Below, piece after piece: positions 18,665 through 37,468 of a stretch of 64,000 nt of DNA. Both the position numbers and the translations under genes were made by a program. Under the pieces are notes generated by a model. It was not told where the DNA came from. It was given only the letters and a program-made list of their open reading frames with translations, and ran no database searches. Positions within the stretch are counted from its first letter, which is position 1; every line of letters begins with the position of its first letter. Origin of the DNA: Chloroflexota bacterium (GTDB taxonomy: Bacteria > Chloroflexota > UBA11872 > VXOZ01); the NCBI GenBank assembly GCA_965220175.1, contig OZ244814.1, positions 2,439,045 through 2,503,044 on the forward strand. Direction: 5' to 3'.

Positions 18665-20254
18665 TCAGTCGAAGAGCAACGCCTTCCGGCGCAGAATTGT
18701 GTCGCCTAGGAGTCCAAGTTGCACTTCATATCGCGTTCCGGCGTGCTGTGGATGGTATTCGAAACGCGCACGTTGGAAATACTGTACGGTCTTGCCGTCT
18801 TCGAAGACCTCCTGCGTGATGGGATAACCGAAGATGTAAATGCCACCGTTCTCCCGGAAATACTTAAGGAACGCAAAGTGAACGGAATGACCGGTTTCCG
18901 GAAAATACTGCTGTGATTCGGTCGTCGGCATTGGCGCAACTCTCGTAGCTGGTGGCTCGCCATTGCGGATTGCATTGCCAAGCAAGGTAAGTTGAACCTC
19001 GTAGGGAGTGCCTGCGTGTTGCGGGTGATACTCGAAACGTGCACGCTGAAAGTACTGCACGATCTTGCCATCTTCCGTCATCTCTTCGGTACGTGGATAC
19101 CCGAAGATATCGATACCACCGTTAGCCTCAAAGAACTCTCGAAAGCCGCCAAAGACATTGTGACCCGTTTGATTGAAATACAGCACGCCCGGACTGTTGA
19201 TTCTGGGCACCGGATCGGTGGGCAATCGATCGCGCAGGCCGATACTCACCCACAAGTCGTCGCCTAGGTTTTGGCCGCCCGGTCCTTGCATGCTCCAGAC
19301 GCTCATACATTCCCCGCATACGGTAGGCGCGCGCAGCCTCAGACTCACGGCGCCGGTCTGCCCCGGCATGAGGTAGGGCAGGGGTACGCTTACAGGTCCG
19401 CCAAACTGGTTTCTACCTTTGAATACCAGTCGGAAGTCGCCGTTCCACGGCACCCCGCCGGTGTTCATGACTTTCCACGTCTTTGTAAAACTGCTGCCTG
19501 CCAGCACCGCTGTTCCGTCCGGGATCGTCAGATCCGCGATATAGCGTCCGTCCGGCTCCGTGAAGTACGAGTGAATTCCCTTGTAGAGCGAGGCCGCCAC
19601 TCTCTGCTGGTAGCTAGGGTCATTGAGCTTTATTGCTTCCGCGTAGTTGGAGAGCGTGCCAATCTCTGCGAGTACCGCCGGCAGGTTTATCTTACCGAGA
19701 ATGTAATAGGGTGCCGATTGTACTCCACGATCATCTGCGCGTGTTATCTCCTGAAGGCTATCCCTGATTCTGCGTGCGAGGTTCCTGCTTTGGGCTATGA
19801 GTTCCGGCGGTCGATTGTGGGAGTAGAGGTAACCGTCTTCAGGGCCGAAGAAGACAACCACTCCCGTACGAGAGGCATCTTCCAAGGAGTCTGCGTGAAT
19901 GGATACGAATATGTCCCCATTCGCTTGGTTCGCGATCTGCAGCCGGGCATCCAAGTCCGATCTGCGCCGATTAGCACTGGTCCCCAGGGTCGTGTCGTCA
20001 ACGCGCGTATAGACCGTGGTAGCTCCGGCCGACTCCAAGAGCGCCTTGAGCTTGAGAGCAATCTGGATATTGACGTCTTTTTCTTTGAAGCCATTTACTA
20101 CGGCTCCCGGGTCTTCGCCGCCGTGTCCAGGGTCAATTACTATGACTCTGCCGGCAAGAGAACCCGCCGCCTGTACAAGGCTGCTCGGGAGTACTAACGC
20201 GGCAAAGAGGAAGACAAAAAGAGTGGAGAAAATTGAGACGCGAATAGGCCGCAT
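18665..20254 (-). CDS. N-acetylmuramoyl-L-alanine amidase (Amidase_3) with signal peptide/TM, central Ig-like region and two C-terminal LGFP-like repeats
   Basis: An N-terminal hydrophobic segment is followed by the Amidase_3 core (VIVIDPGHGGEDPGA ... SIHADS). Two roughly 75-aa tandem repeats follow (FGYPxTxExxEDGKxVQYFQRARFEYHPQHAGTxYEVQLxLLG). Confidence 0.85.
   Translation of the reverse strand: MRPIRVSIFSTLFVFLFAALVLPSSLVQAAGSLAGRVIVIDPGHGGEDPGAVVNGFKEKDVNIQIALKLKALLESAGATTVYTRVDDTTLGTSANRRRSDLDARLQIANQANGDIFVSIHADSLEDASRTGVVVFFGPEDGYLYSHNRPPELIAQSRNLARRIRDSLQEITRADDRGVQSAPYYILGKINLPAVLAEIGTLSNYAEAIKLNDPSYQQRVAASLYKGIHSYFTEPDGRYIADLTIPDGTAVLAGSSFTKTWKVMNTGGVPWNGDFRLVFKGRNQFGGPVSVPLPYLMPGQTGAVSLRLRAPTVCGECMSVWSMQGPGGQNLGDDLWVSIGLRDRLPTDPVPRINSPGVLYFNQTGHNVFGGFREFFEANGGIDIFGYPRTEEMTEDGKIVQYFQRARFEYHPQHAGTPYEVQLTLLGNAIRNGEPPATRVAPMPTTESQQYFPETGHSVHFAFLKYFRENGGIYIFGYPITQEVFEDGKTVQYFQRARFEYHPQHAGTRYEVQLGLLGDTILRRKALLFD
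18680..19230 (-). repeat. Intragenic tandem duplication encoding two LGFP-like repeat units of the amidase (approximate bounds)
   Basis: Two protein segments are about 70% identical over roughly 75 aa each; the DNA copies lie at approximately 18680-18900 and 18960-19230. Confidence 0.6.
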
Positions 20255-22439: not shown

Positions 22440-23384
22440 ATGAAGTTCCTGCTCTTTACGAAGCGTCTTGAACATCTCTCCCTGGAAGAGCTGGCCGCGA
22501 CAGTCGCGGGCCTGGGCCTAGATGGCGTGGATTTGACGGTGCGCGGCGCCGGACACAATTTGCCGGAGGCGGCGGCCGGCACTGCCGGCCACGTCATACC
22601 TGAACGAGTGCATACCGATCTCCCGCGGGCTGCTGCAATTTGCCGTGCCCATGGACTTGAAATTGGTTGGATCACTACCGACATTACGAGCGCCGCCACA
22701 CCGTACGCCCGTGAAGTGATCGCTGGGTTAAGTGAGTGCGGCATTCCACAGTTCAAGCTCGGCTATCACCACTACGATGGCTTTGGCCACCTGCGGCGGC
22801 AGCTCGACGCGATGCGGCGCGACCTGGAAAGCATAGAAAAGCTCTGCCTGCAATATGGTGTACAGGCCGGTGTCCACGTTCACGCGGGCTACTGCTTGTC
22901 TGCTGAAGCGATGCAGGTAGAACGCGTGGTAGCCGACTTCGACCCCGCGGCTATTGGCATCTACGCCGACCTCGGTCATATGGGCCTGGAAGGCGCTTAC
23001 GGCGGCTGGGTGCAAAGTCTCGACCTGATTTCCGAGCGGCTGATCATGCTCTCCCTGAAGAACGTAGGGCTGTTTCCTTTTACCGGCGCGGACGACTCCG
23101 GTCGCCGTTCCCATGTGCGCCCGGCGCTGTTCGACCAGCCATCAAACGCCTCAGGGGGTGAAGTGATGTGGGAGAGCAAGTTTGTGCCGTTGAGGGAAGG
23201 CATCACGCCGTACCGCGAGGCATTCTACTACCTCAAGCAGATTGGCTACAGCAACTACGCCTGCTTCCACACCGAGTATCAAGGTGCGTGGAGTTGGCGG
23301 GAACTCTCATATCCCGAATTAATCGAGCAGCTCAAAGACGACCTCGCCTACGTACGAGAAATCACGGCTGAGCTTAATATGTAG
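22440..23384 (+). CDS. Sugar phosphate isomerase/epimerase (xylose-isomerase-like TIM barrel; IolE/MocC-like)
   Basis: 314 aa with the AP-endonuclease-2/TIM-barrel pattern (GLDGVDL, metal-ligand His/Glu/Asp distributed through the barrel). Confidence 0.75.
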   Translation: MKFLLFTKRLEHLSLEELAATVAGLGLDGVDLTVRGAGHNLPEAAAGTAGHVIPERVHTDLPRAAAICRAHGLEIGWITTDITSAATPYAREVIAGLSECGIPQFKLGYHHYDGFGHLRRQLDAMRRDLESIEKLCLQYGVQAGVHVHAGYCLSAEAMQVERVVADFDPAAIGIYADLGHMGLEGAYGGWVQSLDLISERLIMLSLKNVGLFPFTGADDSGRRSHVRPALFDQPSNASGGEVMWESKFVPLREGITPYREAFYYLKQIGYSNYACFHTEYQGAWSWRELSYPELIEQLKDDLAYVREITAELNM

Positions 23385-23508: not shown

Positions 23509-24525
23509 GTGAGTTTCCGCATCGGTTTGATCGGACTGGAACAGCACGTCGAACGCGTGTTTGGTGCTGTGGACAACGACCCGGAGATTGCTCTCGTAGC
23601 GGTTGCCAACGCGGGCGAGCAGAGCGCTGAGATTGCCGAAAAGTACCAGGCCGAAACCTACGATGACTATCACGATCTGCTGGCCCGCGACGACATTGAT
23701 GTGATTGCCAGTTTTCAGTTGCCGGTCCTGCAAGGCGAAACGGTAATTGCGGCGCTGGAAGCCGGCTACCCTGTGCTATCAGAGAAGCCCATGGCGACGC
23801 GGCAGGACGAGCTTGACCGCATCATCGGCATACTTCAGGAGAATTCCAACCTTCATGTAGGACAACTCTTCAGTCGACGGGGCAATCCGGTCTACCGGGC
23901 CGTGCGCGATGTGGTGCAGAGTGGCCGGATAGGTGAGGTGGCGTTGGCCTACGCGCTCATCGCCGCCACTGAGCGGCGCGGTGTGCGGCCGGAGTGGTTC
24001 TTCGACCGCAGGCTCTCCGCCGGGCCGGTGCTCGACTTGCTCATTCACGACATCGACATTGTGCGCTGGATCACCGGCCTCGAGTATCGGAGCGTCATCG
24101 GCACGGAAGCCAACATCGGCCGCCCGGACGATCCCCACTACCATAACGTCGGACAGGTGCTGTTTAGCATGGACGGCGGGGTGAGCGCCGTGCTCGAGCA
24201 CCATCGTCTTGTGCCGCCGAGTTTGGGACGCATGGACAACCGCCTCAAAGTCCTCGGCACCGAGGGGCAGGCGGAAATCACCCATGACGGCAAAGTATGG
24301 CTCTATGGCTGGGATGAATCTCAGGAGTTGACCGACTTGCCGGCGCAGCAGGACATCTTCGCCAATTTTGTCCGCGCCGCCTGTGCGGGCCAAACACCCA
24401 TCGTGAGCACGCAGGATGCGGTGCAAAGCATGCAAGCCACTCTCTCCGCTACTGAGGCCGGCTATAGCGGGACTCAGAAGCAGGTGCCGCCGGTACCAAT
24501 TCTGCCGGAACGCACAGCCCCATAG
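23509..24525 (+). CDS. Gfo/Idh/MocA-family NAD(P)-dependent oxidoreductase
   Basis: N-terminal Rossmann fold (FRIGLIGLEQHV), the EKP motif (VLSEKPMA) and a C-terminal alpha/beta domain. Confidence 0.85.
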   Translation: MSFRIGLIGLEQHVERVFGAVDNDPEIALVAVANAGEQSAEIAEKYQAETYDDYHDLLARDDIDVIASFQLPVLQGETVIAALEAGYPVLSEKPMATRQDELDRIIGILQENSNLHVGQLFSRRGNPVYRAVRDVVQSGRIGEVALAYALIAATERRGVRPEWFFDRRLSAGPVLDLLIHDIDIVRWITGLEYRSVIGTEANIGRPDDPHYHNVGQVLFSMDGGVSAVLEHHRLVPPSLGRMDNRLKVLGTEGQAEITHDGKVWLYGWDESQELTDLPAQQDIFANFVRAACAGQTPIVSTQDAVQSMQATLSATEAGYSGTQKQVPPVPILPERTAP

Positions 24526-24625: not shown

Positions 24626-25690
24626 TTGGAGTGTAAGGCTGCGCTTCAAGCAAGGGAAAAACGGTTGAAGTACATAGTTGATGCCAGCCCTGCTATGCCA
24701 CACCAGGGCACAACCCTGGCCTCCTGCCTCTGTCCGTTGCTGCAAGCCGTCGGCCGGCCGGAGTGGACTATGGCGCGCTTGCAGGGTGTTCTGGGTCATG
24801 CCTTCCAATTTGATATGAAGGAGGGCGGCCAGCACGTCAATCACGATCATTTTGACTGGGGGCCTGCCCTGGATCTCTTGCCACAGATCGTGCAATTCCG
24901 GACATTCATGGCTAACGAGCAGGACGCGGACATTGACTTGCCGGCGCTAAAGCGAGAAGTGAGAGACTCTGTAGTTTCCGGTCTAAAGCGTGGCATTCCC
25001 GCGCTGGCGTGGTCCCCCATGAGCCGGGAAATCGCGGCGAGCCACCACCACGGCGTGTGCTGGGGCTTGCTCATTGGCTATGACGAGACGGATGAGACGT
25101 ACACAATCCGTCACCCGTTCGTCAATGGCGCCTACGCTGTGCGATACGACGAAATCGGACACGCAGAAGCGGAGGAGTCGATCTGGGTCATGCCTTACGA
25201 CGGGCCCAGCACTGCGGACGAGCGAGCAACGCATATCACGGCGCTACGCAACGCCGTAGCCTATGCACACGCGAGGCGATATGCGGAAGACGACGAGCGC
25301 AACGCCAATCGGCGCGCGCTTCCGCACGGCTTCGCAGCCTATGACGTCTGGCAGCAGGCCTTTGAATCGGAAGATGTGCCGGTTAATGTTACCCACCACC
25401 ATCTCGAGATGCTGATGTACCGGCGGGTTGCGGCTGCAGCATATCTGCGGGAGCTTGCCGATTTCTTTCCTGCAGCGGCCAAGAGCCTGGAGGCGGCGGC
25501 GCATTCCTATGACCGTGAAATGGACTCGCTAAACCCGCTCCACGATCTCTGCGACACCGCTTGTGACAGAGAATCGTGGCTGGCAGAGGACAGGGCGCAG
25601 GCGCGGCAATTCATCGGTAGCGCTTTGGAGTCAGACCGCGAGGCAATTGCCAGTATTGAGGCTGGGCTCGCAATACTTGAAGAAAACTAA
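24626..25690 (+). CDS. Conserved protein of unknown function, paralog 1 (conserved Cys near the N-terminus, His-rich motifs); start uncertain (possible TTG at 24665 or ATG at 24695)
   Basis: About 60% identical to the downstream ORF. Shared motifs are GTTLASCLCPL, RPEW.MARLQGV.GHAF.F.M, DWGPALD, HHxxCWGL.GY.ET.ETYT.RHPF, RYD.IGHA, and AAAAYLREL..FPAA. Confidence 0.6.
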   Translation: MECKAALQAREKRLKYIVDASPAMPHQGTTLASCLCPLLQAVGRPEWTMARLQGVLGHAFQFDMKEGGQHVNHDHFDWGPALDLLPQIVQFRTFMANEQDADIDLPALKREVRDSVVSGLKRGIPALAWSPMSREIAASHHHGVCWGLLIGYDETDETYTIRHPFVNGAYAVRYDEIGHAEAEESIWVMPYDGPSTADERATHITALRNAVAYAHARRYAEDDERNANRRALPHGFAAYDVWQQAFESEDVPVNVTHHHLEMLMYRRVAAAAYLRELADFFPAAAKSLEAAAHSYDREMDSLNPLHDLCDTACDRESWLAEDRAQARQFIGSALESDREAIASIEAGLAILEEN

Positions 25691-25712
25691 CGTGCCGGAT
25701 CTTGAACAGAAC

Positions 25713-26744
25713 ATGATTGTCGAGATCGACGTTCACCCGTATCTTCCACACGATGGGACAACGCTTGCTTCCTGCCTTTGCCCGCTAATGCAATCCGTCG
25801 GCCGACCGGAGTGGTCGATGGCGCGGCTGCAGGGCGTCATGGGGCATGCTTTCCACTTTGAGATGGCCAAGGGTGGGGGCGACGTCATGCACGACAACAT
25901 CGACTGGGGGCCCGCCTTGGACTTCCTCCCGGTATTCGCGCAGTTCCGTGCCTTCAAAGCAACCAAGCACGATGCTGACGTCGATCTTCCCGCGCTGAAG
26001 CGAGAGGCAAGGGACACCGTTCGCGCCGGTCTGAAGAACGGCTTTCCCGCGCTGGTGTGGCAGCCAATGAACCTGAAACAGAAGGCAAGCGATCACCCGG
26101 CGCACCACGCGTACTGCTGGGGGCTGATCGTTGGATATAACGAAACGGAAGAGACATACACGGTTCGTCACCCGTTTGTAGACTGCACCTACACCGTTCG
26201 CTACGACGACATCGGACATGCGGATCCGGCTGAGTTGTTCAGCATTCTGGCGTACGAAAATTCGAGCTCAGCAGACGTCAATGTGGTGCATCTGACGGCA
26301 TTGAAAAACGCCGTCGCCTTCGCGCACGCCACTCGATTCGCGGCTGATGATGAGGCCAATGCCAGGCGGAGAGCCCGTCCGCATGGTTTGGCAGCCTACG
26401 CACTCTGGCGTGAAGCGTTCACTGCAGAAGATGTCCCCACGTTCAAATCCCATCACCACATCACCGTACTGGCGGCGCGGCGTCGTGCGGCGGCCGCGTA
26501 TCTGCGCGAGCTCGTTGCAATCTTTCCTGCAGCCGACGGACACCTTGAAGCAGCGGCAGCTCATTACGATCATGAAGCGGAACCACTAGATGCCATCCAC
26601 AATCTCTGCAATACGGCCTGCGATGAAGACAAGTGGAGTGCGGAGAACCGAGCTCAGGTGGGCGGATTGATCGGCGACGCATTGCTCTGTGAAACAAAGG
26701 CAATTGCCGCCATCGAGACGGCACTCACGATGCTGGATAGGTAA
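25713..26744 (+). CDS. Conserved protein of unknown function, paralog 2
   Basis: 343 aa from the ATG at 25713 (the ORF is open from 25563 and overlaps the paralog 1 stop). Motifs are the same as in paralog 1. Confidence 0.6.
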   Translation: MIVEIDVHPYLPHDGTTLASCLCPLMQSVGRPEWSMARLQGVMGHAFHFEMAKGGGDVMHDNIDWGPALDFLPVFAQFRAFKATKHDADVDLPALKREARDTVRAGLKNGFPALVWQPMNLKQKASDHPAHHAYCWGLIVGYNETEETYTVRHPFVDCTYTVRYDDIGHADPAELFSILAYENSSSADVNVVHLTALKNAVAFAHATRFAADDEANARRRARPHGLAAYALWREAFTAEDVPTFKSHHHITVLAARRRAAAAYLRELVAIFPAADGHLEAAAAHYDHEAEPLDAIHNLCNTACDEDKWSAENRAQVGGLIGDALLCETKAIAAIETALTMLDR

Positions 26745-26823: not shown

Positions 26824-27627
26824 GTGATTATTGACGTACATTCCCACGTCAAGAACGACCACGAGATCACAGTCTCGCTGCGCAAGGCGCGACGGCACGG
26901 CGTCATCCTCTGCATCAACGTGCTCAACTCAAACAACAACTATCCCCCCACGCTGCCAACCCCTGAGTATGTTGCCGCGTGCAACGACCTTACCTTTAAC
27001 GTAGCCTCCAACAACCCCGATTGCGTGATACCCATGTGGTATCTCAATCCCTACCATCCGCGGGAAATGGAAGCCGAACTTAAGCGCCGCGTAGGAGCCT
27101 GGGACGGCCATCAGGGCGCGAAGCTTTGGACCGGCGTGAAAGCCAATGATCCGCGCTTGGAAGGCATCTATGCGCTTCTCGCCGAATACAAACTGCCGGT
27201 ACTCCAGCACACCTACATGGCGGTGACGGGGAACATGCCCGGCGAGACCAACCCCTTCGAAATGCGCGAGGCCGGGCTCCGGCATCCCGATGTCAGTTTC
27301 TTCTTCGGCCACTCCGGCAGCGACATGGAGTACGGCGCTAAGGCCGCCCAAGGCGTGTCCAACCTCTTCATGGACATCGGTGGCGGCGACGCTACTAATG
27401 GCTATACCGAGACGCTCGTGGAGCACGCAGGAGCGGATCGCGTCGTATACGGCAGCGACCTCAACGCGCCGCGCTCGTTCATGTCACAACTGGCGAAAGT
27501 GTACGGGGCGGACATTCCCGATGAGGAGAAGGAACTGATTCTCTGGCGGAACGCCCACGGCATCTTTACACGGCAGACAGTCGCTTGGAGCCAATTTGAC
27601 CGGCATCAGAAGGCGGCTGAGCAGTAA
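26824..27627 (+). CDS. Amidohydrolase-2 family metal-dependent hydrolase (TIM barrel; ACMSD/LigI-like)
   Basis: The N-terminus IIDVHSHV is the typical His-x-His metal site. GTG start, 267 aa. Confidence 0.7.
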   Translation: MIIDVHSHVKNDHEITVSLRKARRHGVILCINVLNSNNNYPPTLPTPEYVAACNDLTFNVASNNPDCVIPMWYLNPYHPREMEAELKRRVGAWDGHQGAKLWTGVKANDPRLEGIYALLAEYKLPVLQHTYMAVTGNMPGETNPFEMREAGLRHPDVSFFFGHSGSDMEYGAKAAQGVSNLFMDIGGGDATNGYTETLVEHAGADRVVYGSDLNAPRSFMSQLAKVYGADIPDEEKELILWRNAHGIFTRQTVAWSQFDRHQKAAEQ

Positions 27628-27647
27628 GAGTCACGACTTCGTGAATT

Positions 27648-27716
27648 GTCATTCCGGCGAATGCCGGAATCTAGTGGGCGGAAGAAAAGATGGATTCCCG
27701 CATTCGCGGGAATGAC
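27648..27716. repeat. Pair of near-identical 24-nt hairpin elements in inverted orientation (GTCATTCCGGCGAATGCCGGAATC ... GATTCCCGCATTCGCGGGAATGAC)
   Basis: Each unit is a 7-bp-stem palindrome with GTCATT/AATGAC flanks. The two copies are reverse complements of each other differing at one stem position, separated by 21 nt, in the gap between the two amidohydrolase genes. Confidence 0.5.
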
Positions 27717-27776
27717 GGCCGAGTAATCACTTCCTTTCTAAGTCAAGAGATCACCGAAGCAGTTTGAGCAAAGTCT

Positions 27777-28607
27777 ATGATTGACGCGAATGCGTACATC
27801 GGCGAGTGGCCCTTCCGCCGGCTCAATCACGCGGCGCCGGACGCGCTGCTGCGCAAGATGGACGCGCTTGGCATTGAGAAGGCGGTGGTCTCGCGGCTGG
27901 AAAACGTCTTTTACAAAGACGTGATGGTGGGCAACCGCGAATTGCACGGCATTGTGCAGCAGCATCCGGACCGGTTTGTGCCTGCCTACACAATCAACTC
28001 CGCTATGCCAGGTTGGGAACTGGACTTCCAGCGCTGCGTCGAGGAATACGGCATGCGCAACTTGCGCATTCACCCCAACTACCACCAGTTCACGCTGCTG
28101 GAGCCGCACACCACGCGCGTCATGGACGCCAGTTTGGAAGCGTATGCCCAGTACCACATGCTTTCGAGCAATGCCCTCGCCCTGCTTGAGCGCGCAAGAG
28201 CTCACGATCTCGTCGTGCTCCTCACGCTCACCCTTGAAGATTCCCGCTGGCATCACTGGCACGTTAAGGTGCCGCCGGTCACGACAACCGACGCCGTGGA
28301 AGGCATCTGCACCTTCCCGGACGTACGCTTTCTCGTGTGCACCGGTCGCTACGGGCACATTGCCGACATTTGGCGGCGGGTATACAAGAGTGACAATCTC
28401 TATTTCGACGTTTCCCGCGTGCAGGGACCGGTGGACGACATCGAGCAACTCTGCGCCCAAGTAGGCGCCGAATGCTTGCTCCTGGGCACGAATTGCCCAA
28501 TCTTCTATCCCGAATCCGCCAAGCTCAGTATCGAGCATGCCGAGATCACCGACCAAGAAAAGGAACTGCTGCTCTCCGCTAACGCGAAGCGACTGTTTGC
28601 ACTGTAA
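27777..28607 (+). CDS. Amidohydrolase-2 family metal-dependent hydrolase (second copy, divergent)
   Basis: 276 aa with TIM-barrel hydrolase motifs (IDANAYIGEWPF..; HPNYH; the C-terminus is conserved with the upstream enzyme: EKELLLSANAKRLF vs EKELILWRNAHGIF). Confidence 0.7.
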   Translation: MIDANAYIGEWPFRRLNHAAPDALLRKMDALGIEKAVVSRLENVFYKDVMVGNRELHGIVQQHPDRFVPAYTINSAMPGWELDFQRCVEEYGMRNLRIHPNYHQFTLLEPHTTRVMDASLEAYAQYHMLSSNALALLERARAHDLVVLLTLTLEDSRWHHWHVKVPPVTTTDAVEGICTFPDVRFLVCTGRYGHIADIWRRVYKSDNLYFDVSRVQGPVDDIEQLCAQVGAECLLLGTNCPIFYPESAKLSIEHAEITDQEKELLLSANAKRLFAL

Positions 28608-28619
28608 AGGAAGTGCCCC

Positions 28620-29915
28620 ATGGCCAGCGCGACCAAGCTCGACGTCTCTCGTTCGGTGGAACTCTACGAGGAAGCCGTGCGCCTCATGCCGGGCGGCTCG
28701 CAGACCAAAGGCAAGCGCCCCAACCCTGCGTCGTACGGTGCCATGCCGATATTTATGTCACATGGACGGGGCTCGCGGCTGTGGGATGTTAACGGCAACA
28801 GCTACATTGACTACTACGGCGCTTCCGGCGGTGTCTTGCTGGGGTATTGTCACCCGGATGTAGACCGCGCGGTCGCAGCACAACTTGAAAAGGGCATGCT
28901 CTTCAGCACGCCCTCCGAGCCGGAGATCGCGTGCGCCAAGCTCGTCAACGAGGTCGTGCCCTGCTCCGAGATGGTCCGCTTTTTGAAAGGCGGGGTGGAT
29001 GTAAATCAATGCGCCACACGCATTGCCCGCGCCTACACGAAGCGCGAAATCGTGCTAAACAACGGCTATCGCGGCTGGGCGGACGAATGGAACTACTGGC
29101 GCAACGACGGCGGCATGCCGGCTGCCTTCCACACCCTGAATCAGCAATTCCGCTTTAACGACCTCAACCACCTGGAAGAACTCTTCGCGCTCAACGACGG
29201 CAAGGTCGCCGCGGTCTCTTTCGATTGCGCAGAACCGCTCAAGGAACCGGAGCCAGGATTCCTGCAGGACCTCAAGGACTTGGCGCACCGACACGGGGCG
29301 CTGGTGATTTACGACGAGTGCATGACGGGCTTCCGTTTTGCCCTGGGCGGCGCGCAGGAGTACTACGGCGTGGAGCCGGACATAGCTACCTACGCCAAAG
29401 GCATGGCCAACGGCATGTCGCTCGGGGCGGTGGCCGGCAGCCGCGAAATCATGGAAAAGACTGCCGACTGTTTGATTAGCCTGACGTTTGGCGGCGAAAC
29501 CCTCTCCCTCGTGGCAAGCATTGCCACGCTGCAGATCTGCCGCGACGAGGACGTGGCGGGCCACATTAACCGCATCTCGCAAGCTGTCATGGACGGCGTG
29601 GAGGAGGTCTCGCACCGCGTGGGCATTCCGATGGAGTCGTTCGGCCCGCCGGCGTTGTTCGGCATCAGGTTCATTGCCGGCGATGAGCCGCTGCCCGCCG
29701 ACGCCGGTACGTTCTTCTACACCGGTCTCGCCAAGCGCGGTGTGATGCTCAAGGGCTCCTGGAACAACGTGCTCTACGCCCACAGCGACGAGGACGTGGC
29801 GGAGACGCTGGAGGCGGTGGAGGATACATTGTTGGACCTGCGGCGCGCGCGGGATGCGGGAAGGGTGTCGGAGGAGGTTGCTGTGGCTACCGTACCATTT
29901 AACCGTCCCTACTAG
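28620..29915 (+). CDS. Class-III PLP-dependent aminotransferase (glutamate-1-semialdehyde aminomutase-like)
   Basis: 431 aa starting at 28620, 13 nt after the upstream amidohydrolase-2 gene. Motifs: GGSQTKGKRP, SGGVLLGYCHP, the YDECMTGFR region, and TYAKGMANG (Lys in the PLP-binding context). Confidence 0.85.
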   Translation: MASATKLDVSRSVELYEEAVRLMPGGSQTKGKRPNPASYGAMPIFMSHGRGSRLWDVNGNSYIDYYGASGGVLLGYCHPDVDRAVAAQLEKGMLFSTPSEPEIACAKLVNEVVPCSEMVRFLKGGVDVNQCATRIARAYTKREIVLNNGYRGWADEWNYWRNDGGMPAAFHTLNQQFRFNDLNHLEELFALNDGKVAAVSFDCAEPLKEPEPGFLQDLKDLAHRHGALVIYDECMTGFRFALGGAQEYYGVEPDIATYAKGMANGMSLGAVAGSREIMEKTADCLISLTFGGETLSLVASIATLQICRDEDVAGHINRISQAVMDGVEEVSHRVGIPMESFGPPALFGIRFIAGDEPLPADAGTFFYTGLAKRGVMLKGSWNNVLYAHSDEDVAETLEAVEDTLLDLRRARDAGRVSEEVAVATVPFNRPY

Positions 29916-30158
29916 CGCCAATAAGCAAAAGCAAGACAACTGAGCACAAATACCTAACCTGTGCTTCGACAAGCTCAGCACGAACGGAAAGCTAGGTCAA
30001 CACGATTCAATGCGAATTAACCACGAACAACAATCTTGACATAAATAACCATTCGGTGTTTAGCCGTTCGCCCTGAGCCTGTCGAAGGGCAAGTTTACCA
30101 AGAGCGAATCATGTGGGAGGCGGATCGAGGATTTTATTCGATCGAGGAATAGTCGGTC

Positions 30159-30998
30159 GTGCAAGGAAATTCCATGGCCACATTTCACATGCCCGTGCGC
30201 TCCTATCGCGTCCACCCACTCCCCGGGCAGGCGTATGACGACCGCAACTACGGCCACGTGCACAAGACGGTAGCGCTGGATACCGGCAACACGGCCGTCA
30301 TCGCCATCGACATGTGGAATCTCGGCGGCGACGGCGAACCCATCATTCCCGGTGTGGACAAGTACTGGGAATACAACTACATGGGCGGGCACGGCGTGGC
30401 GAAGCGGGCCGGCAAGATCATGCAGGAAGAGATCGTACCGGTGCTGGCGGCGGCGCGCGAGGCCGGTGTGCCGGTCGTTCACAACGAACCGCCCCAAATC
30501 CTCGCGCGCTATCCCGGGTATGTGCCGCCGGAACCATCCAAAAAATCCAGCGACGACACCCCCGATTGGCCGCCGCCCGCATTTCGCCGTGAGTTGTTGG
30601 CCGAATACTACCGGACGGTCTTTGGCGAGGGATACGCAGAACCCTGGCGGAAGATCCGCGACAACTACGACTTTGCCGACTGCGTCAAACCCGACCCACG
30701 CGACTTCCTTTTCTCCCAGCCTCAGCAAATAGAGGGTTTCCTCAAAGAACATAATATCCTCAATCTCGTATACGTCGGCTTCCTCTTGAACTTCTGCCTG
30801 CTCATGAAGCCCGGCGGCATTCTGCAGACACGCAACCGCTTTCGCACCATTGTGCTGCGGGACTGCACCGCCGCCTCGGAGACGGCGTGGTCCACCGGCG
30901 AAAACCTGATGACCAAGGCATTCATCCACTGGCTGGAAATCGGCGGCGCGCTCACCGCCACAGGAGAAGATTTCAGCAAGTCACTCTCGTCTGCGTAG
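30159..30998 (+). CDS. Isochorismatase-like cysteine hydrolase family protein (start uncertain)
   Basis: The TAVIAIDMWN segment resembles the isochorismatase-family ..VIDMQN.. motif. 279 aa. Confidence 0.5.
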   Translation: MQGNSMATFHMPVRSYRVHPLPGQAYDDRNYGHVHKTVALDTGNTAVIAIDMWNLGGDGEPIIPGVDKYWEYNYMGGHGVAKRAGKIMQEEIVPVLAAAREAGVPVVHNEPPQILARYPGYVPPEPSKKSSDDTPDWPPPAFRRELLAEYYRTVFGEGYAEPWRKIRDNYDFADCVKPDPRDFLFSQPQQIEGFLKEHNILNLVYVGFLLNFCLLMKPGGILQTRNRFRTIVLRDCTAASETAWSTGENLMTKAFIHWLEIGGALTATGEDFSKSLSSA

Positions 30999-31098
30999 CC
31001 CAGCGCGACAGGGAAAGGAGGTCGTGCCTACAAGCGCCTTGGGAAAGAGGGCGCAAACAAGACAATTTAAGCAAAGAAGACCCTTCAGGAGGGTTGTT

Positions 31099-32532
31099 AT
31101 GCGTAACACATTCAGCAGCTTGAGTAGACGGCGTTTTCTCGCCGGTGCCGGAGGTCTCAGCGGTGCCGCCCTTCTTGCCGCTTGCGGTGTGGCCCAGGCT
31201 CCAACCGATGCGCCGGTGGCCGATGACGCGCCGGAGGCTGAAGACGCTCCCACGAAGGAGCCCGCAACCGTCAACATACGGTGGATCGTGAACGTTGCCG
31301 AAAACGCCCAAGCGTTTGAGGACGGGGTGATCAACCGGTTCAGGGAAATGCACCCCGACATCGATCTCAAGTACGAGGGATCCCCGTATCGAGCGCATTA
31401 TGACAAGATGCTGGCCGAACTGGCCGCGAACGAGGCCATCGACATCCTCACGCCCGACCCCACGCGGTGGATTGAGTGGACGGACAAGGGGTTTGTGCGA
31501 GAAGTCACCGACCTTTACAAGCGCGACCAGACTCAACTCGGAGACACCGTGGCGCTTGACTGGATTGTCGACCCGCAGGGACGCTTCTGGTCCATGCCCT
31601 ATACGGCGCTCGGCACCATCCACATCTACAATACGTCCATCTTCGACAAATATGGGATCAGCGAGCCGCCGCGGCAGTGGAATGCCAGTGACGGCGGCGA
31701 GTACATTGACGTCGCGCGGGAGATTACGAGTAGGTCCAGCAGCGAACCGGATCCGATTTGGGGCATTTACACCGGCGCTGACTACACGACCGAGTTGAGC
31801 ACCTACGTCGTGCAGAACGGCGGCAATTTCCTCTCCGACGACCTGAGGCGTGCAACCATGCACGAGCCTGAGTTCATCGAGGCCATACAGTTTATGTATG
31901 ACCTTGAATTCAAGTACCGTGTGGCCCCGCCCGCAGAAGCGAAGGCTGCGTTCAGAGAGACCCTGGGCGAGGGCCGGCACCGCGACGCGCTGTTCGTGCA
32001 CGGGCGCGCGGCGATGAACAATACCTGGTTCAACGCCGAGAGCGGCTGGACCCACCCTGACGTGGAAAACCTGCCCATGAAGGCTGTGCCCATGCTGGAG
32101 AGCAGCAAGGCAGGGCCTACATCCAATAAGGTTGCCGGTTGGACCGCGGTGCAATACATGTGGTCCGGCGCAAAGCACCCGGACGCTGTCTGGGAGTTCA
32201 TGAAGTTCGCCATGTCGGACATCGAGTTCGGTGTGGCGGTGACAACGCTGCTCAACTACGGTCTGTCGGCGAACGCAAACGCATGGGACGATCCCCGCCT
32301 GGTGGCAACGAAAACTCGTCCGCCTCGCGAGATAGACTCCATTGCCACGCCGCTCCGGGAAGGCCGCGGCTTTATCACCCAGATCTTCCCCGGCTGGCGG
32401 GAGCACTTGGGATTTTTCAACGAGCAGAAGTCACTGGTGTGGAAGCAGGAGCTCACCGTTGAGGAAGCCATGCAGAACTCCAGCAAACACACGCAAGCGG
32501 TTATTGACGCGTATTGGGCCGACAAAGAGTAA
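31099..32532 (+). CDS. ABC-transporter extracellular solute-binding protein (family 1, sugar-type) with Tat signal and lipobox
   Basis: RRRFLAGAGGLSGAALLAACG marks a Tat motif plus lipobox Cys. A CAGGAGGG RBS lies 6 nt upstream. The mature domain is about 440 aa. No permease or ATPase gene is adjacent. Confidence 0.8.
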   Translation: MRNTFSSLSRRRFLAGAGGLSGAALLAACGVAQAPTDAPVADDAPEAEDAPTKEPATVNIRWIVNVAENAQAFEDGVINRFREMHPDIDLKYEGSPYRAHYDKMLAELAANEAIDILTPDPTRWIEWTDKGFVREVTDLYKRDQTQLGDTVALDWIVDPQGRFWSMPYTALGTIHIYNTSIFDKYGISEPPRQWNASDGGEYIDVAREITSRSSSEPDPIWGIYTGADYTTELSTYVVQNGGNFLSDDLRRATMHEPEFIEAIQFMYDLEFKYRVAPPAEAKAAFRETLGEGRHRDALFVHGRAAMNNTWFNAESGWTHPDVENLPMKAVPMLESSKAGPTSNKVAGWTAVQYMWSGAKHPDAVWEFMKFAMSDIEFGVAVTTLLNYGLSANANAWDDPRLVATKTRPPREIDSIATPLREGRGFITQIFPGWREHLGFFNEQKSLVWKQELTVEEAMQNSSKHTQAVIDAYWADKE

Positions 32533-32540
32533 AGATATCA

Positions 32541-32575
32541 GCAAGGGGCGATTGTCAATAATCGTCCCTTGCTTT
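32541..32575 (+). terminator. Rho-independent terminator-like hairpin (GCAAGGGGCGAT-tgtcaata-ATCGTCCCTTGC followed by TTT)
   Basis: Stem-loop begins 9 nt after the stop of the first SBP gene. Confidence 0.45.
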
Positions 32576-32734
32576 AGAATTGACACAGCGAAGTTGAGCA
32601 TATTCAAAGCCCAGTGAATGCTGGCCGGAAAGGAGTTCTAGGTGGGGGGTAGCAATCTGCGCCCGAGATTCTAGAACTCAATCTGCCATGGGCGCACGTG
32701 TGTCGTTCGCAGTCAATTCTGGAGGAAACGAAAG

Positions 32735-34168
32735 ATGACCGAACAACGAACAAGCATCACGCGTCGTGGACTCTTAGCGACATCGGCGGGCGCGGGCACC
32801 ATGGCCGTGTTTGCTGCCTGTGGTGTGGCGCAAGCTCCGGCTGCCGCGCCGGAGGCCGACGATGCGCCTAAGTCAGAAGACATGCCTGCGATGGAAGAGG
32901 CGACGGTCAGCGTTAATTGGGTCGTAAACATACATGAGAACGCGGGGGCTTTTGAGGACCTCGTACTCGGCCCCTTCAAGGAATTGCATCCCAACATCAC
33001 GGTCAACTGGCAGTCCATGGCGTATCGGGCGCTCATGGAAAAGCAGGTCGTGGAACTCGCTGCCGGATCCTCGCCGGACATTCTCGGCCCGGAACCCACC
33101 CGCTATCCTCAATATCGGGACGCCGGCTATATCGCTGACTTAACACCTTATGTTAAGCGCGACGCGGCCGCGATCGCCGACGTGGTGGGCATCGACTGGC
33201 TGCAGGACCCCGAAGGCAAGTCTTGGACATTCCCCTACGGCGTGCTGGCTACTATCCAGATCTACAACACGGCCCTTCTCGACAAGTTCGGCATCAACGA
33301 ACCGCCGAAGTCCTGGAATCCCAGTGACGGCGGGGAATTGCTTGAGACAGCACGCGAGATCACGCAGCGCTCCAGCGCCGATCAGAATCCCATCTGGGGC
33401 TTCTATAGTCGCAATGACTCCACCACCGAAGTGCCGACGATGCTCATTCAGAACGGCACGAACTTTGTCTCCGACGATTACTCCCGCTTCCGGCTGCACG
33501 AACCTGAATTCATCGACGTCATTCAGTTCCTGTATGACCTTGAATTCAAGTACCGCGTCAAGCCGACCCGGGAAGACGTGGCGGCGCTCAACGACACCAT
33601 TCCGGCGGAACAACGACGTGATTCACCGTTCGTGCACCAGCGCGCCGCGGTTTTCCACACGTGGTTCAACACAGAATCCGGCTGGAACGTACCGGGGGTC
33701 GAGGAATTACCGGTCAAAGCGCGGCGCTTCCCGGCCCACAGCGTGCAGAGCGAAAACTCGGATGCGGTGGGCAGCTACACGCCGGTGCAATACATGTGGT
33801 CGGGCGCCAAGTCTCCGGACGCCACGTGGGAGTTGATAAAGTTCATCAGCACCGATCTCGAGGTGCAGGTCGGCGTTACCACGTTGCTCAACTACGGCAT
33901 GCCCGTGGTCAAATCGGCGTGGGACGACCCACGCTTGGCGGAGCAGAAGGCGCGTCCGCCGCGCGAACTCACTCCGATCACGGAGCCGATTGGCGAGGGC
34001 AACGGCTTCATGACCCAAATCTACCCCAACTATGTTGACATTCGCCGGGTCTACCTGGACCACGTGAACATGGCGTGGAAGCAGGAAATGACTGTAGCGG
34101 ATGCCATGCAGAGCGCCGGCAAGATCATGCAGGAGATGATTGACGAGTATTACGCCAACAAGAGCTAG
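32735..34168 (+). CDS. ABC-transporter extracellular solute-binding protein, paralog of 31099..32532 (Tat signal and lipobox)
   Basis: TRRGLLATSAGAGTMAVFAACG signal. About 50% identical to the upstream SBP (shared YDLEFKYRV, QYMWSGAK, GVTTLLNYG). Confidence 0.8.
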   Translation: MTEQRTSITRRGLLATSAGAGTMAVFAACGVAQAPAAAPEADDAPKSEDMPAMEEATVSVNWVVNIHENAGAFEDLVLGPFKELHPNITVNWQSMAYRALMEKQVVELAAGSSPDILGPEPTRYPQYRDAGYIADLTPYVKRDAAAIADVVGIDWLQDPEGKSWTFPYGVLATIQIYNTALLDKFGINEPPKSWNPSDGGELLETAREITQRSSADQNPIWGFYSRNDSTTEVPTMLIQNGTNFVSDDYSRFRLHEPEFIDVIQFLYDLEFKYRVKPTREDVAALNDTIPAEQRRDSPFVHQRAAVFHTWFNTESGWNVPGVEELPVKARRFPAHSVQSENSDAVGSYTPVQYMWSGAKSPDATWELIKFISTDLEVQVGVTTLLNYGMPVVKSAWDDPRLAEQKARPPRELTPITEPIGEGNGFMTQIYPNYVDIRRVYLDHVNMAWKQEMTVADAMQSAGKIMQEMIDEYYANKS

Positions 34169-34199
34169 GGCTCGCTCTTTCCTGTGTAGTTATGGCCAG

Positions 34200-34240
34200 A
34201 CGTTCGCCCCTTTGGAAACGAGGGGGCGAACGTTTATTTT
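34200..34240 (+). terminator. Strong rho-independent terminator (11-bp GC-rich stem ACGTTCGCCCC / GGGGCGAACGT, followed by TTATTTT)
   Basis: A perfect stem plus U-tract is read directly, 32 nt after the stop of the second SBP gene. Confidence 0.7.
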
Positions 34241-34411
34241 CACCCCAATTCTTGGCACGGCTATTGCCCTATGAACTTGAAGTGAAGCCTCGAGAATTCG
34301 CGCCATCTCTAGATTGTGTTGTCATTTCGTGGCACTCTGTAAATCTAAGGCATTCTGTCATTTCGAGCGCAGCGAGAAATCTAGAATCCACACATTAGGA
34401 GTCTAAAGAGC

Positions 34412-34813
34412 ATGGCATTAGTAAAGAAAACTGTTCTCGGTGAGGGCGTGTGCCCGCCCTTCAGCAATTTTTCGCAAGGCCTGATGATCGATGGCGTCAA
34501 GCGCGTCCTCTTCATCGCGGGCCAGTTTCCGGTAGACGAGAACGGCGAACTGGTCGGCAAAGGTGACATCGAAGCCCAGACCCGCAAGGTCTATGCCAAT
34601 ATCGAAGCGCTGTGCAAAGCGGCCGGCGGGTCGCTGGAGAACGTGGCGCACCTTAATATGTACGTCACCGACATCCGCTTCCGCGCGGTCGTCACCGGCA
34701 TCCGCAACGAGATCTTCGCGCCGCCATATCCCACGGCCACCATGGTGCAGATCGGATCGCTATCGGGTGAAGACTGGCTCGTCGAAATCGATGCAATAGC
34801 CGTCTTTGACTAG
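34412..34813 (+). CDS. ridA: RidA/YjgF/L-PSP family reactive-intermediate deaminase
   Basis: 133 aa with the C-terminal RidA signature (PARS-like segment ...ENVAHLNMYVTDI..., ...PATMVQIGSL...). Confidence 0.85.
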   Translation: MALVKKTVLGEGVCPPFSNFSQGLMIDGVKRVLFIAGQFPVDENGELVGKGDIEAQTRKVYANIEALCKAAGGSLENVAHLNMYVTDIRFRAVVTGIRNEIFAPPYPTATMVQIGSLSGEDWLVEIDAIAVFD

Positions 34814-35656: not shown

Positions 35657-37468
35657 ATGTCAATGCGATCGCGGTACGCGTGGAAGACGAGATCTCACAG
35701 GATACCCCGGCGGCTCCTCTTGAAAGTCGCTGCCGTGCCCGTTGCGGGCGTGGTAGGGGGATCGGCATTTGGCGTTTTGCGTTCCCAAGCTGCCCGGTAC
35801 GCCCTGCCGGGGACGTTCATTGGCTCCGTGGACATTTCCGGTTTGTCGATGGCGGAAGCCAATGCGCTGGTTTCGGCGCAGTGGCAGGACTATCTCCACA
35901 ACCCTGTGGTCTTCGGTTATGAAGAAAACACTTGGACACCCACCGCCAATGACATCGGTCTTATTGTAGAAATCGAAGGGGCGATTCGCGACGCGTTTGC
36001 CCGGGAACGGCGGCGCATGTGGTACTGGTTCTTGGGACTGAGTTCGCGCAACCACATTGAGTTGCCCATTCTGTTGAACTCTACAGTTGCTCTGAATTTC
36101 TTGAATGCTATTGCAGAGCAAATTGACCGACCACCCATGAGCTCAACGCTGGACCGCCAAGCCGACCAGGTCCGTGTTGTGCCAGGCGCTGACGGCAAAC
36201 GACTTGACCGCGAAGCTACATTGGGGCTGATGAAACTGCCCTCCGATCCACCTCAGCGTCAGACGGTCAATTTGCCGGTTCTGACCCTCGTGCCGCCAAT
36301 CACGCTGCAAATGGCCGAGGAGACAAAGTCAGTATTTGATAAGCTTGTTGCCCAAGGTCTGCGCTTTGAACTCGCAGGTGACGGCTGGGAAGTTCCCGGC
36401 AATGCATTGACTTCCTGGCTGCAGATTCACCAGGATCCCGAGGAACGCCGCCTGGCAGTCATGGGAGATCCCGATATGCTCCGGGACTGGCTGGATCAGG
36501 TTGCTGTCGAGGCCACGCGGCCTCCCCAAAATGCGCGCTTTACCGTCCGCGACGAAGAGGTGCATCTAACGGTGCCGGCCGAACAGGGCTATCAGACCGA
36601 CTCCGATGTGCTGCTCGCTACGGCGCAGGCTGCCATCGAGCAAGGAATCACGGCTCTGTATCTCCCCGCAGAAGTCCAGGAACCCGCGTATACGGCGCAG
36701 AACATGCACAACTGGGGGTTTGAGAATGTCATTGCGGAAGGCGTCTCATTGTTTGCCGGCTCGCCGCCCGAACGCGCCCACAATATTGCCCATGCAGCCT
36801 CTAAGCTGCATGGCTACGTGATCCCTCCCGGAGAGACGTTTTCGTTCCTCAGCGTATTGGGCCCGATCACGCGCGAAGACGGCTACCAATCCAGTCTCAT
36901 CATCTTTGGCGATCAAACGGTACCGGGCGTTGGCGGCGGTGTCTGCCAGGTATCGACAACCATGTTCCGGGCGGCATTCTGGGCCGGACTACCAATAACG
37001 GAACGCAATCAACACTCCTATCGAGTCGGCTACTACGAGCGCGACGGGAGCCCCCCGGGGTTCGATGCCGCGGTCTATGATCCGGGTGTCGACCTAAAAT
37101 TCGTCAACGACTCTGAACACCCGATCCTCATTCAGACTCATGTTGATGAAAAGACCATGGAGCTCAAGTTTGTATTCCACGGCCAGAGTATCAACCGCTG
37201 GGTGCGCATGCTGCCCGCCGTCGCCAAGAACTGGGTGGAGCACGGCCCGCCCCTGCCCGACAAAGAGGATCCGGATCTTCCCCTGGGTGAGCGCTTGCAA
37301 ATCGAGTGGGCAGTGGACGGCGTGTATGCTGAGATTCACCGAGAGGTCGTGATCGAGGGAAAGCCCCACCTCGATCAATTTCGCAGCCGCTACCGACCGA
37401 ACCGCGAGGGCTGGCTCGTTGGCACGAAGATCGTGCCGCCTGAAGAGCAGATCGGCCCAGTCCAGTAG
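35657..37468 (+). CDS. VanW-family protein with N-terminal TM anchor and peptidoglycan-binding-like region
   Basis: 603 aa. The C-terminal core (GGGVCQVSTT.F.AA.W.GL...HSY.V.YY, DAAV......DLKF.ND) resembles the VanW domain. Confidence 0.65.
   Translation: MSMRSRYAWKTRSHRIPRRLLLKVAAVPVAGVVGGSAFGVLRSQAARYALPGTFIGSVDISGLSMAEANALVSAQWQDYLHNPVVFGYEENTWTPTANDIGLIVEIEGAIRDAFARERRRMWYWFLGLSSRNHIELPILLNSTVALNFLNAIAEQIDRPPMSSTLDRQADQVRVVPGADGKRLDREATLGLMKLPSDPPQRQTVNLPVLTLVPPITLQMAEETKSVFDKLVAQGLRFELAGDGWEVPGNALTSWLQIHQDPEERRLAVMGDPDMLRDWLDQVAVEATRPPQNARFTVRDEEVHLTVPAEQGYQTDSDVLLATAQAAIEQGITALYLPAEVQEPAYTAQNMHNWGFENVIAEGVSLFAGSPPERAHNIAHAASKLHGYVIPPGETFSFLSVLGPITREDGYQSSLIIFGDQTVPGVGGGVCQVSTTMFRAAFWAGLPITERNQHSYRVGYYERDGSPPGFDAAVYDPGVDLKFVNDSEHPILIQTHVDEKTMELKFVFHGQSINRWVRMLPAVAKNWVEHGPPLPDKEDPDLPLGERLQIEWAVDGVYAEIHREVVIEGKPHLDQFRSRYRPNREGWLVGTKIVPPEEQIGPVQ

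Follow-up and report, generated by a model that had tools for sequence, protein, structure and literature searches.

A 64,000-nucleotide stretch of a Chloroflexota bacterium genome (assembly GCA_965220175.1, contig OZ244814.1, positions 2,439,045 to 2,503,044; hereafter the window) carries two adjacent genes, termed A and B, which a preliminary description made from the sequence alone had presented as tandem paralogs of an unknown family. We show that the ancient paralog pair is real; that A and B have, in their predicted structures, the bipartite fold of BtrH, CtaG, CcbD and AziU3, with a papain-like N-domain capped by a helical C-domain; and that the canonical Cys-His-Asp/Glu triad of that fold is lost in both proteins. 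The fold hypothesis of the preliminary description is therefore confirmed, and its catalytic hypothesis, an N-terminal Cys acting with a His cluster, is refuted as stated. In the reading that we prefer, to which we assign a probability of about 0.4, A and B would be ligand-specific cytoplasmic enzymes with a Cys132-His150 pair (numbering of A), encoded within a sugar/cyclitol-amine catabolic cluster.

The window encodes an intact tandem gene pair

The gene limits were set by homologue alignment (lengths in amino acids, aa).

24665..25690, + strand: paralog A gene, 341 aa plus stop codon (25688-25690), TTG start
25713..26744, + strand: paralog B gene, 343 aa plus stop codon (26742-26744), ATG start

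Both genes lie on the same strand, separated by 22 bases, and both reading frames are intact. Positions 24626 and 25563 are the upstream limits of the open reading frames (ORFs) rather than the starts of the A and B genes, as judged from the ORF list and the homologue alignment, and the N-terminus of A aligns with homologues that begin MNxMVDV. The public gene call for A (P0001, 306 aa) begins at Met36 and cuts off strand b1, helix a1 and Thr17 (24665-24772, residues 1-36). Some homologues of 303-309 aa (P0023-P0025 and P0047-P0051) seem to be shortened in the same way, probably because their real starts are TTG or GTG.

By BLASTP, A and B are identical at 199 of 338 residues (59%, expectation value (E) 5e-149), in agreement with the ∼60% identity and ∼345 aa estimated earlier. 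The four sequence motifs quoted at that time are all present in both proteins, but two of the spacings were off: two residues separate CWGL from GY, and three separate REL from FPAA. The assignment to an unknown family also stands, since the best Pfam or NCBIfam match for A or B reached only E 0.2. Searches of Pfam-A, NCBIfam, PADLOC and PDB sequences with A, B and family profiles returned nothing significant. One match among the PDB sequences, MG027 (1q8c, E 0.0055), covered a helical stretch only and was treated as noise. A scan for promoters and terminators gave counts not above those of shuffled sequence.

A and B are predicted to adopt the bipartite BtrH/CtaG/CcbD/AziU3 fold

AlphaFold2 models were built from family alignments and reached a predicted local distance difference test score (pLDDT) of 93.5 for A and 94.5 for B, with a predicted template modelling score (pTM) of 0.91 for each. 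In both models an alpha/beta N-domain is followed by an all-helical C-domain, with the following limits in A.

24665..25207, + strand: papain-like alpha/beta N-domain, aa 1-181
25220..25687, + strand: helical C-domain, aa 186-341, with three long helices at 240-340

The structural matches are listed with entry and chain, followed by two pairs of values.

AziU3, 7wuw_C: 16.9 / 17.0; 271 / 272
CtaG, 9qvj_A: 16.1 / 16.0; 253 / 262
CcbD, 7yn1_A: 13.8 / 14.2; 266 / 265

With Foldseek, AziU3 was matched at E 1.4e-6 with a template modelling score of 0.55, and CcbD at E 1e-3. The CtaG structure was deposited under the name 'BtrH N-terminal domain-containing protein'. The N-domain alone matched C39 peptidase domains, staphopain, streptopain, UfSP and phytochelatin synthase. 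The C-domain alone matched generic helical bundles and no DinB- or DinB_2-like domain, so that the DinB-like relationship raised in the preliminary description is not supported. In CtaG itself the papain-like N-domain covers residues 1-181 and the helical C-domain residues 188-309, and the triad is C11/H128/D144; CtaG, AziU2/U3 and CcbD have no structural neighbours other than one another, and BtrH, AsbE and MllDE are further members (PMC12865890). BtrH_N has been placed close to the C39 and C70 families in a review of papain-like proteins (PMC10318531).

Sequence profiles point faintly in the same direction. Neither A nor B gave a Pfam match to BtrH_N at E ≤ 10 or any match to C39, the models named for a check in the preliminary description. 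Among the most distant family members, sub-threshold matches to BtrH_N were found in 5 of 35 and to Peptidase_C39_2 in 4 of 35, always at residues ∼90-165. The BtrH_N matches scored ∼12 bits (E 0.025-0.25), against a gathering score of 29.7 bits for PF14399, and the best Peptidase_C39_2 match (E 9.4e-4) was that of a distant member only. A profile that included distant members reached a Brevibacillus protein (P0248) with the NCBI name 'BtrH N-terminal domain-containing protein'. The matches of the models to AziU3, CtaG and CcbD, together with these faint matches, bear out the earlier guess of a papain-like or BtrH-N-like fold. In this fold the two domains together enclose a substrate chamber.

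The predicted triad positions carry Thr, Cys and His

The positions predicted to be equivalent to the triad are encoded as follows.

24713..24715, + strand: A Thr17 codon, N-terminus of helix a1, predicted equivalent of the catalytic Cys11 position in CtaG
25058..25060, + strand: A Cys132 codon, 6 residues before the G of GY(D/N), predicted equivalent of His128 in CtaG, His131 in CcbD and the papain His
25112..25114, + strand: A His150 codon (RHP), predicted equivalent of the triad Asp position (Asp144 in CtaG, DP in C39-like families)
25761..25763, + strand: B Thr17 codon
26115..26117, + strand: B Cys135 codon, equivalent to A Cys132
26169..26171, + strand: B His153 codon, equivalent to A His150

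In the model of A, helix a1 begins at residue 17, the central strand begins at 133, directly after Cys132, and the next strand ends R149-H150-P151, in the register of the C39-like 'DP'. Cys132 stands before GY(D/N) in the register of His159 in papain. From T17 to C132 and from C132 to H150 the distances in sequence are 115 and 18 residues; the CtaG triad has 117 and 16. CcbD has a Cys-His131-Glu triad (PMC12945683). Taken together, topology, motif register and spacing place the triad positions at Thr17/Cys132/His150 in A and Thr17/Cys135/His153 in B, an assignment made by comparison of secondary structure, motif register and spacing with CtaG and CcbD rather than by residue-level superposition. 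With Thr, Cys and His at these positions, neither protein is a standard thiol acyltransferase or protease.

Conservation was analyzed in a close set (83 homologues with ≥ 42% identity) and a distant set (57 homologues). In the close set, position 17 is Thr in 75 and Ser in 8, position 132 is Cys in 80 and Ser in 3, and position 150 is His in 82. The His at position 150 is also found in 35 of the 57 distant homologues. The residues D61, D64, W65, W116, W133, D162 and R254 are present in 83/83 close homologues, and H45 (79/83), H60 (80/83) and R149 (82/83) in nearly all. Invariance across both sets is limited to G44, F47, G138 and G222, with W229, R254 and A257 close to it.

The residues that had been proposed as the catalytic pair behave otherwise. 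The quoted motifs are invariant between A and B, but among the close homologues C21 is Cys in 61 and C23 in only 21, H129 is His in 69, and none of the three is conserved in the distant set. In the model C21 and C23 lie one to two turns inside helix a1, not at its N-terminus. Variable and off the canonical positions, C21, C23 and H129 do not qualify as the catalytic pair.

A motif of the form PHxG-TT-L is near-invariant in the close clade (G15-T16-T17 of A at 24707-24715; B at 25755-25763). It resembles the Gly-Thr autoprocessing site of N-terminal nucleophile (Ntn) hydrolases and proteasome beta subunits. This resemblance is probably a coincidence, as the fold differs and Thr17 begins a helix.

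The duplication is old and both copies are under purifying selection

In a neighbour-joining tree, the Chloroflexota copies formed sister A and B clades. Both copies were kept in six genomes, in either order.

A then B: the window, L003, L009
B then A: L005, L008, L011
A only: L001, L004, L006, L007
B only: L010

The sister clades and the varying gene order indicate that the duplication is old within the lineage. An obligate A/B heterodimer was considered and is unlikely, with five genomes holding one copy only.

Against orthologues, dN/dS was 0.11-0.19 for both A and B, indicating purifying selection. The A and B clades are fixed for different residues at 16 positions. Of these, eight (43, 48, 50, 59, 62, 117, 127 and 131) directly flank the invariant G44-H45-A46-F47, H60-D61, W116 and C132, and a further four flank the H244-H246 cluster. 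B holds the outgroup states, so A is the derived copy. The earlier suggestion of two substrate-specific variants is plausible in view of fixed differences interleaved with conserved pocket residues: judged from the alignment, the pattern fits two specificity variants around one conserved core.

The pair lies in a cluster of putative catabolic genes

All genes between 22440 and 34813 are co-directional, and the cluster order is kept in related Chloroflexota.

22440-23384, + strand: xylose-isomerase-like triosephosphate isomerase (TIM) barrel, weakly IolE-like (PDB match E 0.0034)
23509-24525, + strand: GFO/IDH/MocA oxidoreductase, IolG-like (96 bits against a cut-off of 355)
26824..34813, + strand: downstream genes for a pair of Amidohydro_2 proteins, a class-III aminotransferase, an unassigned protein of 279 aa, two SBP_bac_1 solute-binding proteins and a RidA-family protein

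This content suggests catabolism of a sugar- or cyclitol-like amine, which would, by analogy, fit the amino-sugar/aminoglycoside acceptors of CcbD and BtrH. Neither a PP-binding nor an AMP-binding gene was found in the 22-35 kb part of the window or at L032, the syntenic locus with annotation, and an upstream ORF of 74-79 aa is not like an acyl carrier protein (ACP). With no carrier-protein or adenylating gene nearby, a canonical thiotemplated acyltransferase mechanism is not supported. A petrobactin-like analogy (an AsbE-type fold with an AsbF-like TIM barrel and Amidohydro_2 decarboxylases) was tried and rejected, because the TIM barrel matched only IolE and one uncharacterised protein in the PDB, and not AsbF. 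For the Amidohydro_2 proteins, no close relative has a solved structure. No neighbour in the window is common to the loci outside Chloroflexota; GFO/IDH/MocA and AP_endonuc_2 genes do turn up again in L036 and L031, but families this abundant carry no weight as shared context.

Two genes further out are conserved in the related Chloroflexota loci. One (35657-37468) encodes a 603-aa protein with a VanW-like region (NCBIfam vanW-gen, 70 bits, far below the cut-off), and the other (18665-20254) a 529-aa Amidase_3 protein with an N_BRCA1_IG immunoglobulin-like domain.

The family is large and includes exported and signalling forms

A word-indexed search returned 91 clusters at 90% identity, none of them named and none with a Pfam domain in the core. 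An exhaustive profile search returned 902 representatives at 50% identity with E ≤ 1e-3, of which 318 had E ≤ 1e-10. Among species-representative genomes, the close clade comprised 31 loci, all from metagenome-assembled genomes (MAGs) of Chloroflexota, Latescibacterota, Gemmatimonadota and Poribacteria and one unclassified. Distant members also occur in Planctomycetaceae and Brevibacillus. The isolate names of several MAGs, read together with what is known of Poribacteria, suggest sponge or coral metagenomes; a literature search on these names yielded no useful evidence on the hosts.

Architectures were counted in 251 collected homologues. Like A and B, 56 are standalone and have no N-terminal extension. 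The domain is C-terminal to an extracytoplasmic function (ECF) sigma-70 domain in 24 and to a BlaR1 Peptidase_M56 domain in 19, seven of which have at least two domain copies; both kinds of fusion were verified with Pfam. In the BlaR1 fusion P0102 a transmembrane (TM) helix precedes the domain, which places the domain outside the cytoplasm, and the close-clade fusions of this type (P0102) retain the pocket residues of A and B. In L027 the gene upstream of the BlaR1 fusion encodes a BlaI repressor. The ECF fusion P0121 lacks a TM segment. In two Poribacteria-type MAGs (L028 7210-11029 and L029 1309-7037), tandem genes encode single polypeptides of 614-642 aa with an ECF sigma domain, a TM helix and the domain, an unusual one-component layout for a transmembrane sigma factor; in L029 a separate 210-aa ECF sigma gene adjoins them.

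At six loci of Gemmatimonadota and Latescibacterota (L016, L018, L019, L022, L024 and L035), a secreted member directly follows a TonB-dependent receptor of the CarboxypepD_reg+Plug type, with a gap of 4 bp in L035. The secreted member is followed in turn by a ∼1600-aa Peptidase_M6/sortilin/BNR/FlgD_ig protein, forming a recurrent three-gene unit. In L035, CbiZ and CobD lie ∼6 kb beyond this unit. Other neighbours of family members are heterogeneous (DinB_2, APH, GNAT, SDR, GFO/IDH/MocA and TIM barrel).

Some members are repetitive or fragmented. A Latescibacterota locus (L015, OZ240241.1, 6734-13318) holds an array of family pieces: a BlaR1-M56 ORF that ends in the ∼100 initial residues of the domain, a 693-aa ORF with two domain copies, the first without its N-terminal ∼45 residues, and a 280-aa ORF with the C-terminal helices only. 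The array could be a frameshifted or decaying multi-domain BlaR1 fusion. Giant proteins (P0183, 2590 aa; P0189, 1455 aa; P0199, 2501 aa; P0133, 2969 aa) carry 5-6 repeats, some with an M56 N-terminus. In P0183, P0189 and P0199 the best repeat is the last helical part only (profile ∼255-344), so the C-terminal helices may be an independent repeat unit. A literature search found no description of the family, or of a BtrH-like sensor domain in BlaR1 or ECF proteins.

Catalysis, ligand binding and metal binding as possible roles

In the reading that we prefer, the ancestral Cys-His-Asp/Glu triad would have been rewired, with Thr17 at the nucleophile, Cys132 at the His and His150 at the Asp position, amid a conserved polar and aromatic lining (H45, H60, D61, D64, W65, W116, W133, R149, D162 and R254). 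The interdomain chamber would recognise one small amine-bearing or polar metabolite, taken up via the adjacent ATP-binding cassette (ABC) binding proteins. The cytoplasmic, signal-less A and B would then most probably cleave or transfer an amide- or ester-linked (acyl-type) group by means of a Cys132 thiolate paired with His150 and helped by Thr17 at the N-terminus of the helix, each copy being tuned to a slightly different substrate. The product would pass to the IolG-like dehydrogenase, the IolE-like TIM barrel, the class-III aminotransferase, the Amidohydro_2 enzymes and RidA. In other phyla the same domain is exported, as a putative partner of TonB-dependent receptors, or forms the putative sensor of BlaR1/M56 and ECF-sigma proteins. 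The sensor of BlaR1 derives from a beta-lactam-reactive enzyme fold, which the retention of pocket residues in the BlaR1 fusions (P0102) mirrors.

Several observations weigh against an enzymatic role. Position 132 is acidic in 33 of the 57 distant homologues (Glu in 21, Asp in 12) and position 17 is mixed there, a pattern which implies that the family kept the pocket and the His at position 150 but no family-wide nucleophile. The equivalence of T17, C132 and H150 to a triad, and their proximity, are predictions from topology and spacing. The closest structural match, AziU3, is not a thiol acyltransferase. An N-terminal hydrophobic segment (signal peptide or anchor) is present in 53 of the 251 homologues, and the fusions to signalling modules (43/251) suit a binding role as well as an enzymatic one. 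In comparison with the nearest genome, L003 (10001-12080), no genes of the cluster are less conserved than A and B, which show 82% and 77% aa identity, whereas the neighbours (Lon, amidase, TIM barrel, GFO, amidohydrolases, aminotransferase and the substrate-binding proteins) retain 89-99%; dN/dS is nonetheless low (about 0.15). Since the related genomes are close kin (Lon 86-99% identical), synteny is weak functional evidence, and every NCBIfam match of the neighbours is far under the equivalog cut-off.

In one alternative the domain would be a non-catalytic pseudoenzyme whose papain-like chamber only binds a small molecule or peptide, with A and B acting as cytoplasmic binding, chaperoning or regulatory proteins for the cluster substrate and the domain elsewhere acting in sensors or receptors. 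The lost canonical triad, the ECF-sigma and BlaR1/M56 fusions, the BlaI gene upstream of a BlaR1 fusion, the secreted forms 4 bp after TonB-dependent receptors and the faster evolution of A and B relative to neighbouring enzymes all argue for it, and inactive papain-like domains are common and often act as binding modules or scaffolds (PMC10318531). A near-invariant Cys-His pair at the old active site, with only rare Cys-to-Ser change, looks more like chemistry, however, and standalone cytoplasmic binders with no output domain would be unusual inside an enzyme and transporter cluster. Moreover, the precedent of BlaR1 shows that an active enzyme can be the source of a sensor domain and exist alongside it. 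A pseudoenzyme seems rather unlikely, yet it is the strongest of the alternatives.

Exchange of Cys for Glu or Asp at position 132 across clades is typical of metal ligands, and the close clade conserves six His, one Cys and several Asp (H45, H60, H150, H190, H245/246, C132, D61, D64, D162 and D283). These residues raise the alternative of a metal-centred site, formed by Cys132/His150 with His45/His60/Asp61/Asp64, in a metalloenzyme or a metal or metallophore receptor. The contexts would suit metal uptake or sensing (TonB-dependent receptors, ECF sigma factors, and CbiZ and CobD some kb away in L035), and enzymes of this fold make metallophores: AsbE petrobactin, MllDE methylolanthanin and CtaG closthioamide (PMC12865890). 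On the other hand, no known metal motif or match to a metalloprotein fold was found, the clustering of the candidate ligands in space is itself a prediction, H45 and H60 are not conserved in distant members, and the Ser that replaces Cys132 in 3 of 83 close homologues is a poor metal ligand. The petrobactin analogy failed as well, since the TIM barrel has no similarity to AsbF. We regard a metal site as improbable.

About as improbable, in our estimate, is a broader proposal: a new class of receptor/enzyme module with the papain triad shifted by one position (Thr-Cys-His), which would bind, covalently or via a metal, a metabolite of the sponge or coral holobiont. Symbionts of at least four phyla would import this metabolite (TonB-receptor partner), sense it (BlaR1 and ECF-sigma forms, by analogy with the sensing of beta-lactams by BlaR1) and catabolise it (A and B).

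The view of the preliminary description, a canonical BtrH/CtaG/CcbD carrier-protein-dependent acyltransferase or C39-like peptidase with an N-terminal Cys and a His, has in its favour the shared bipartite fold, the Cys residues in helix a1 (C21 and C23) and the His residues at 127-129, but it is very improbable given the variability and helix-internal position of these residues, the cluster devoid of ACP, peptidyl carrier protein (PCP) or adenylating enzyme, and the lack of a Pfam BtrH_N or C39 match in A and B.

If the enzymatic reading of A and B and the family relationships set out here are right, (i) a family of ∼900 clusters at 50% identity, for which there is no Pfam or NCBIfam model, would be a divergent branch of the BtrH/CtaG 'protease-like ligase' fold; (ii) this fold can drop its thiol triad and gain another Cys-His (or acid-His) arrangement; (iii) a previously unnamed sensor domain of BlaR1-like and ECF-sigma proteins would be identified; and (iv) a candidate metabolite-handling system would be common to uncultivated Chloroflexota, Latescibacterota, Gemmatimonadota and Poribacteria, many of them from sponges or corals by their MAG names. 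The analysis also corrects truncated gene calls and names concrete residues for mutation.

Comparison with known systems

CtaG, BtrH and AsbE are papain-like, carrier-protein-dependent ligases. They share with A and B the papain-like N-domain and helical C-domain (BtrH_N, PF14399), but at only 7-10% sequence identity and with no significant BtrH_N match. Where CtaG has Cys11/His128/Asp144, A and B have Thr/Cys/His. Unlike these enzymes, A and B lack carrier-protein partners and are not encoded in a biosynthetic gene cluster, and many family members are exported or fused to signalling proteins, which has not been reported for BtrH-type enzymes. Of the lincosamide condensation enzymes CcbD and LmbD, CcbD combines a Cys-His-Glu triad with a ping-pong thioester mechanism that involves a carrier protein; A and B show none of these features. 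AziU3 works in complex with AziU2 as an aziridine synthase in azinomycin biosynthesis; it is 11-13% identical to A and B, which have no AziU2-like partner or biosynthetic context here.

With clan CA (C39-like peptidases and papain), A and B have the papain-like N-domain fold in common, but not a Cys at the helix N-terminus with a His on the central strand. Of the four features compared with BtrH, CtaG and CcbD, the fold is present in A and B, and the sequence model, the triad and the carrier partner are absent; A and B are accordingly an undescribed variant of the fold rather than members of these families.

The fused forms resemble BlaR1 and MecR1 in the M56 metalloprotease membrane domain, the last TM helix, the extracytoplasmic C-terminal sensor and the BlaI-type gene upstream (L027). 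A and B, in contrast to these members, are unfused. The sensor of BlaR1 and MecR1 has a penicillin-binding/OXA fold, whereas the sensor domain of this family has a BtrH-like papain fold.

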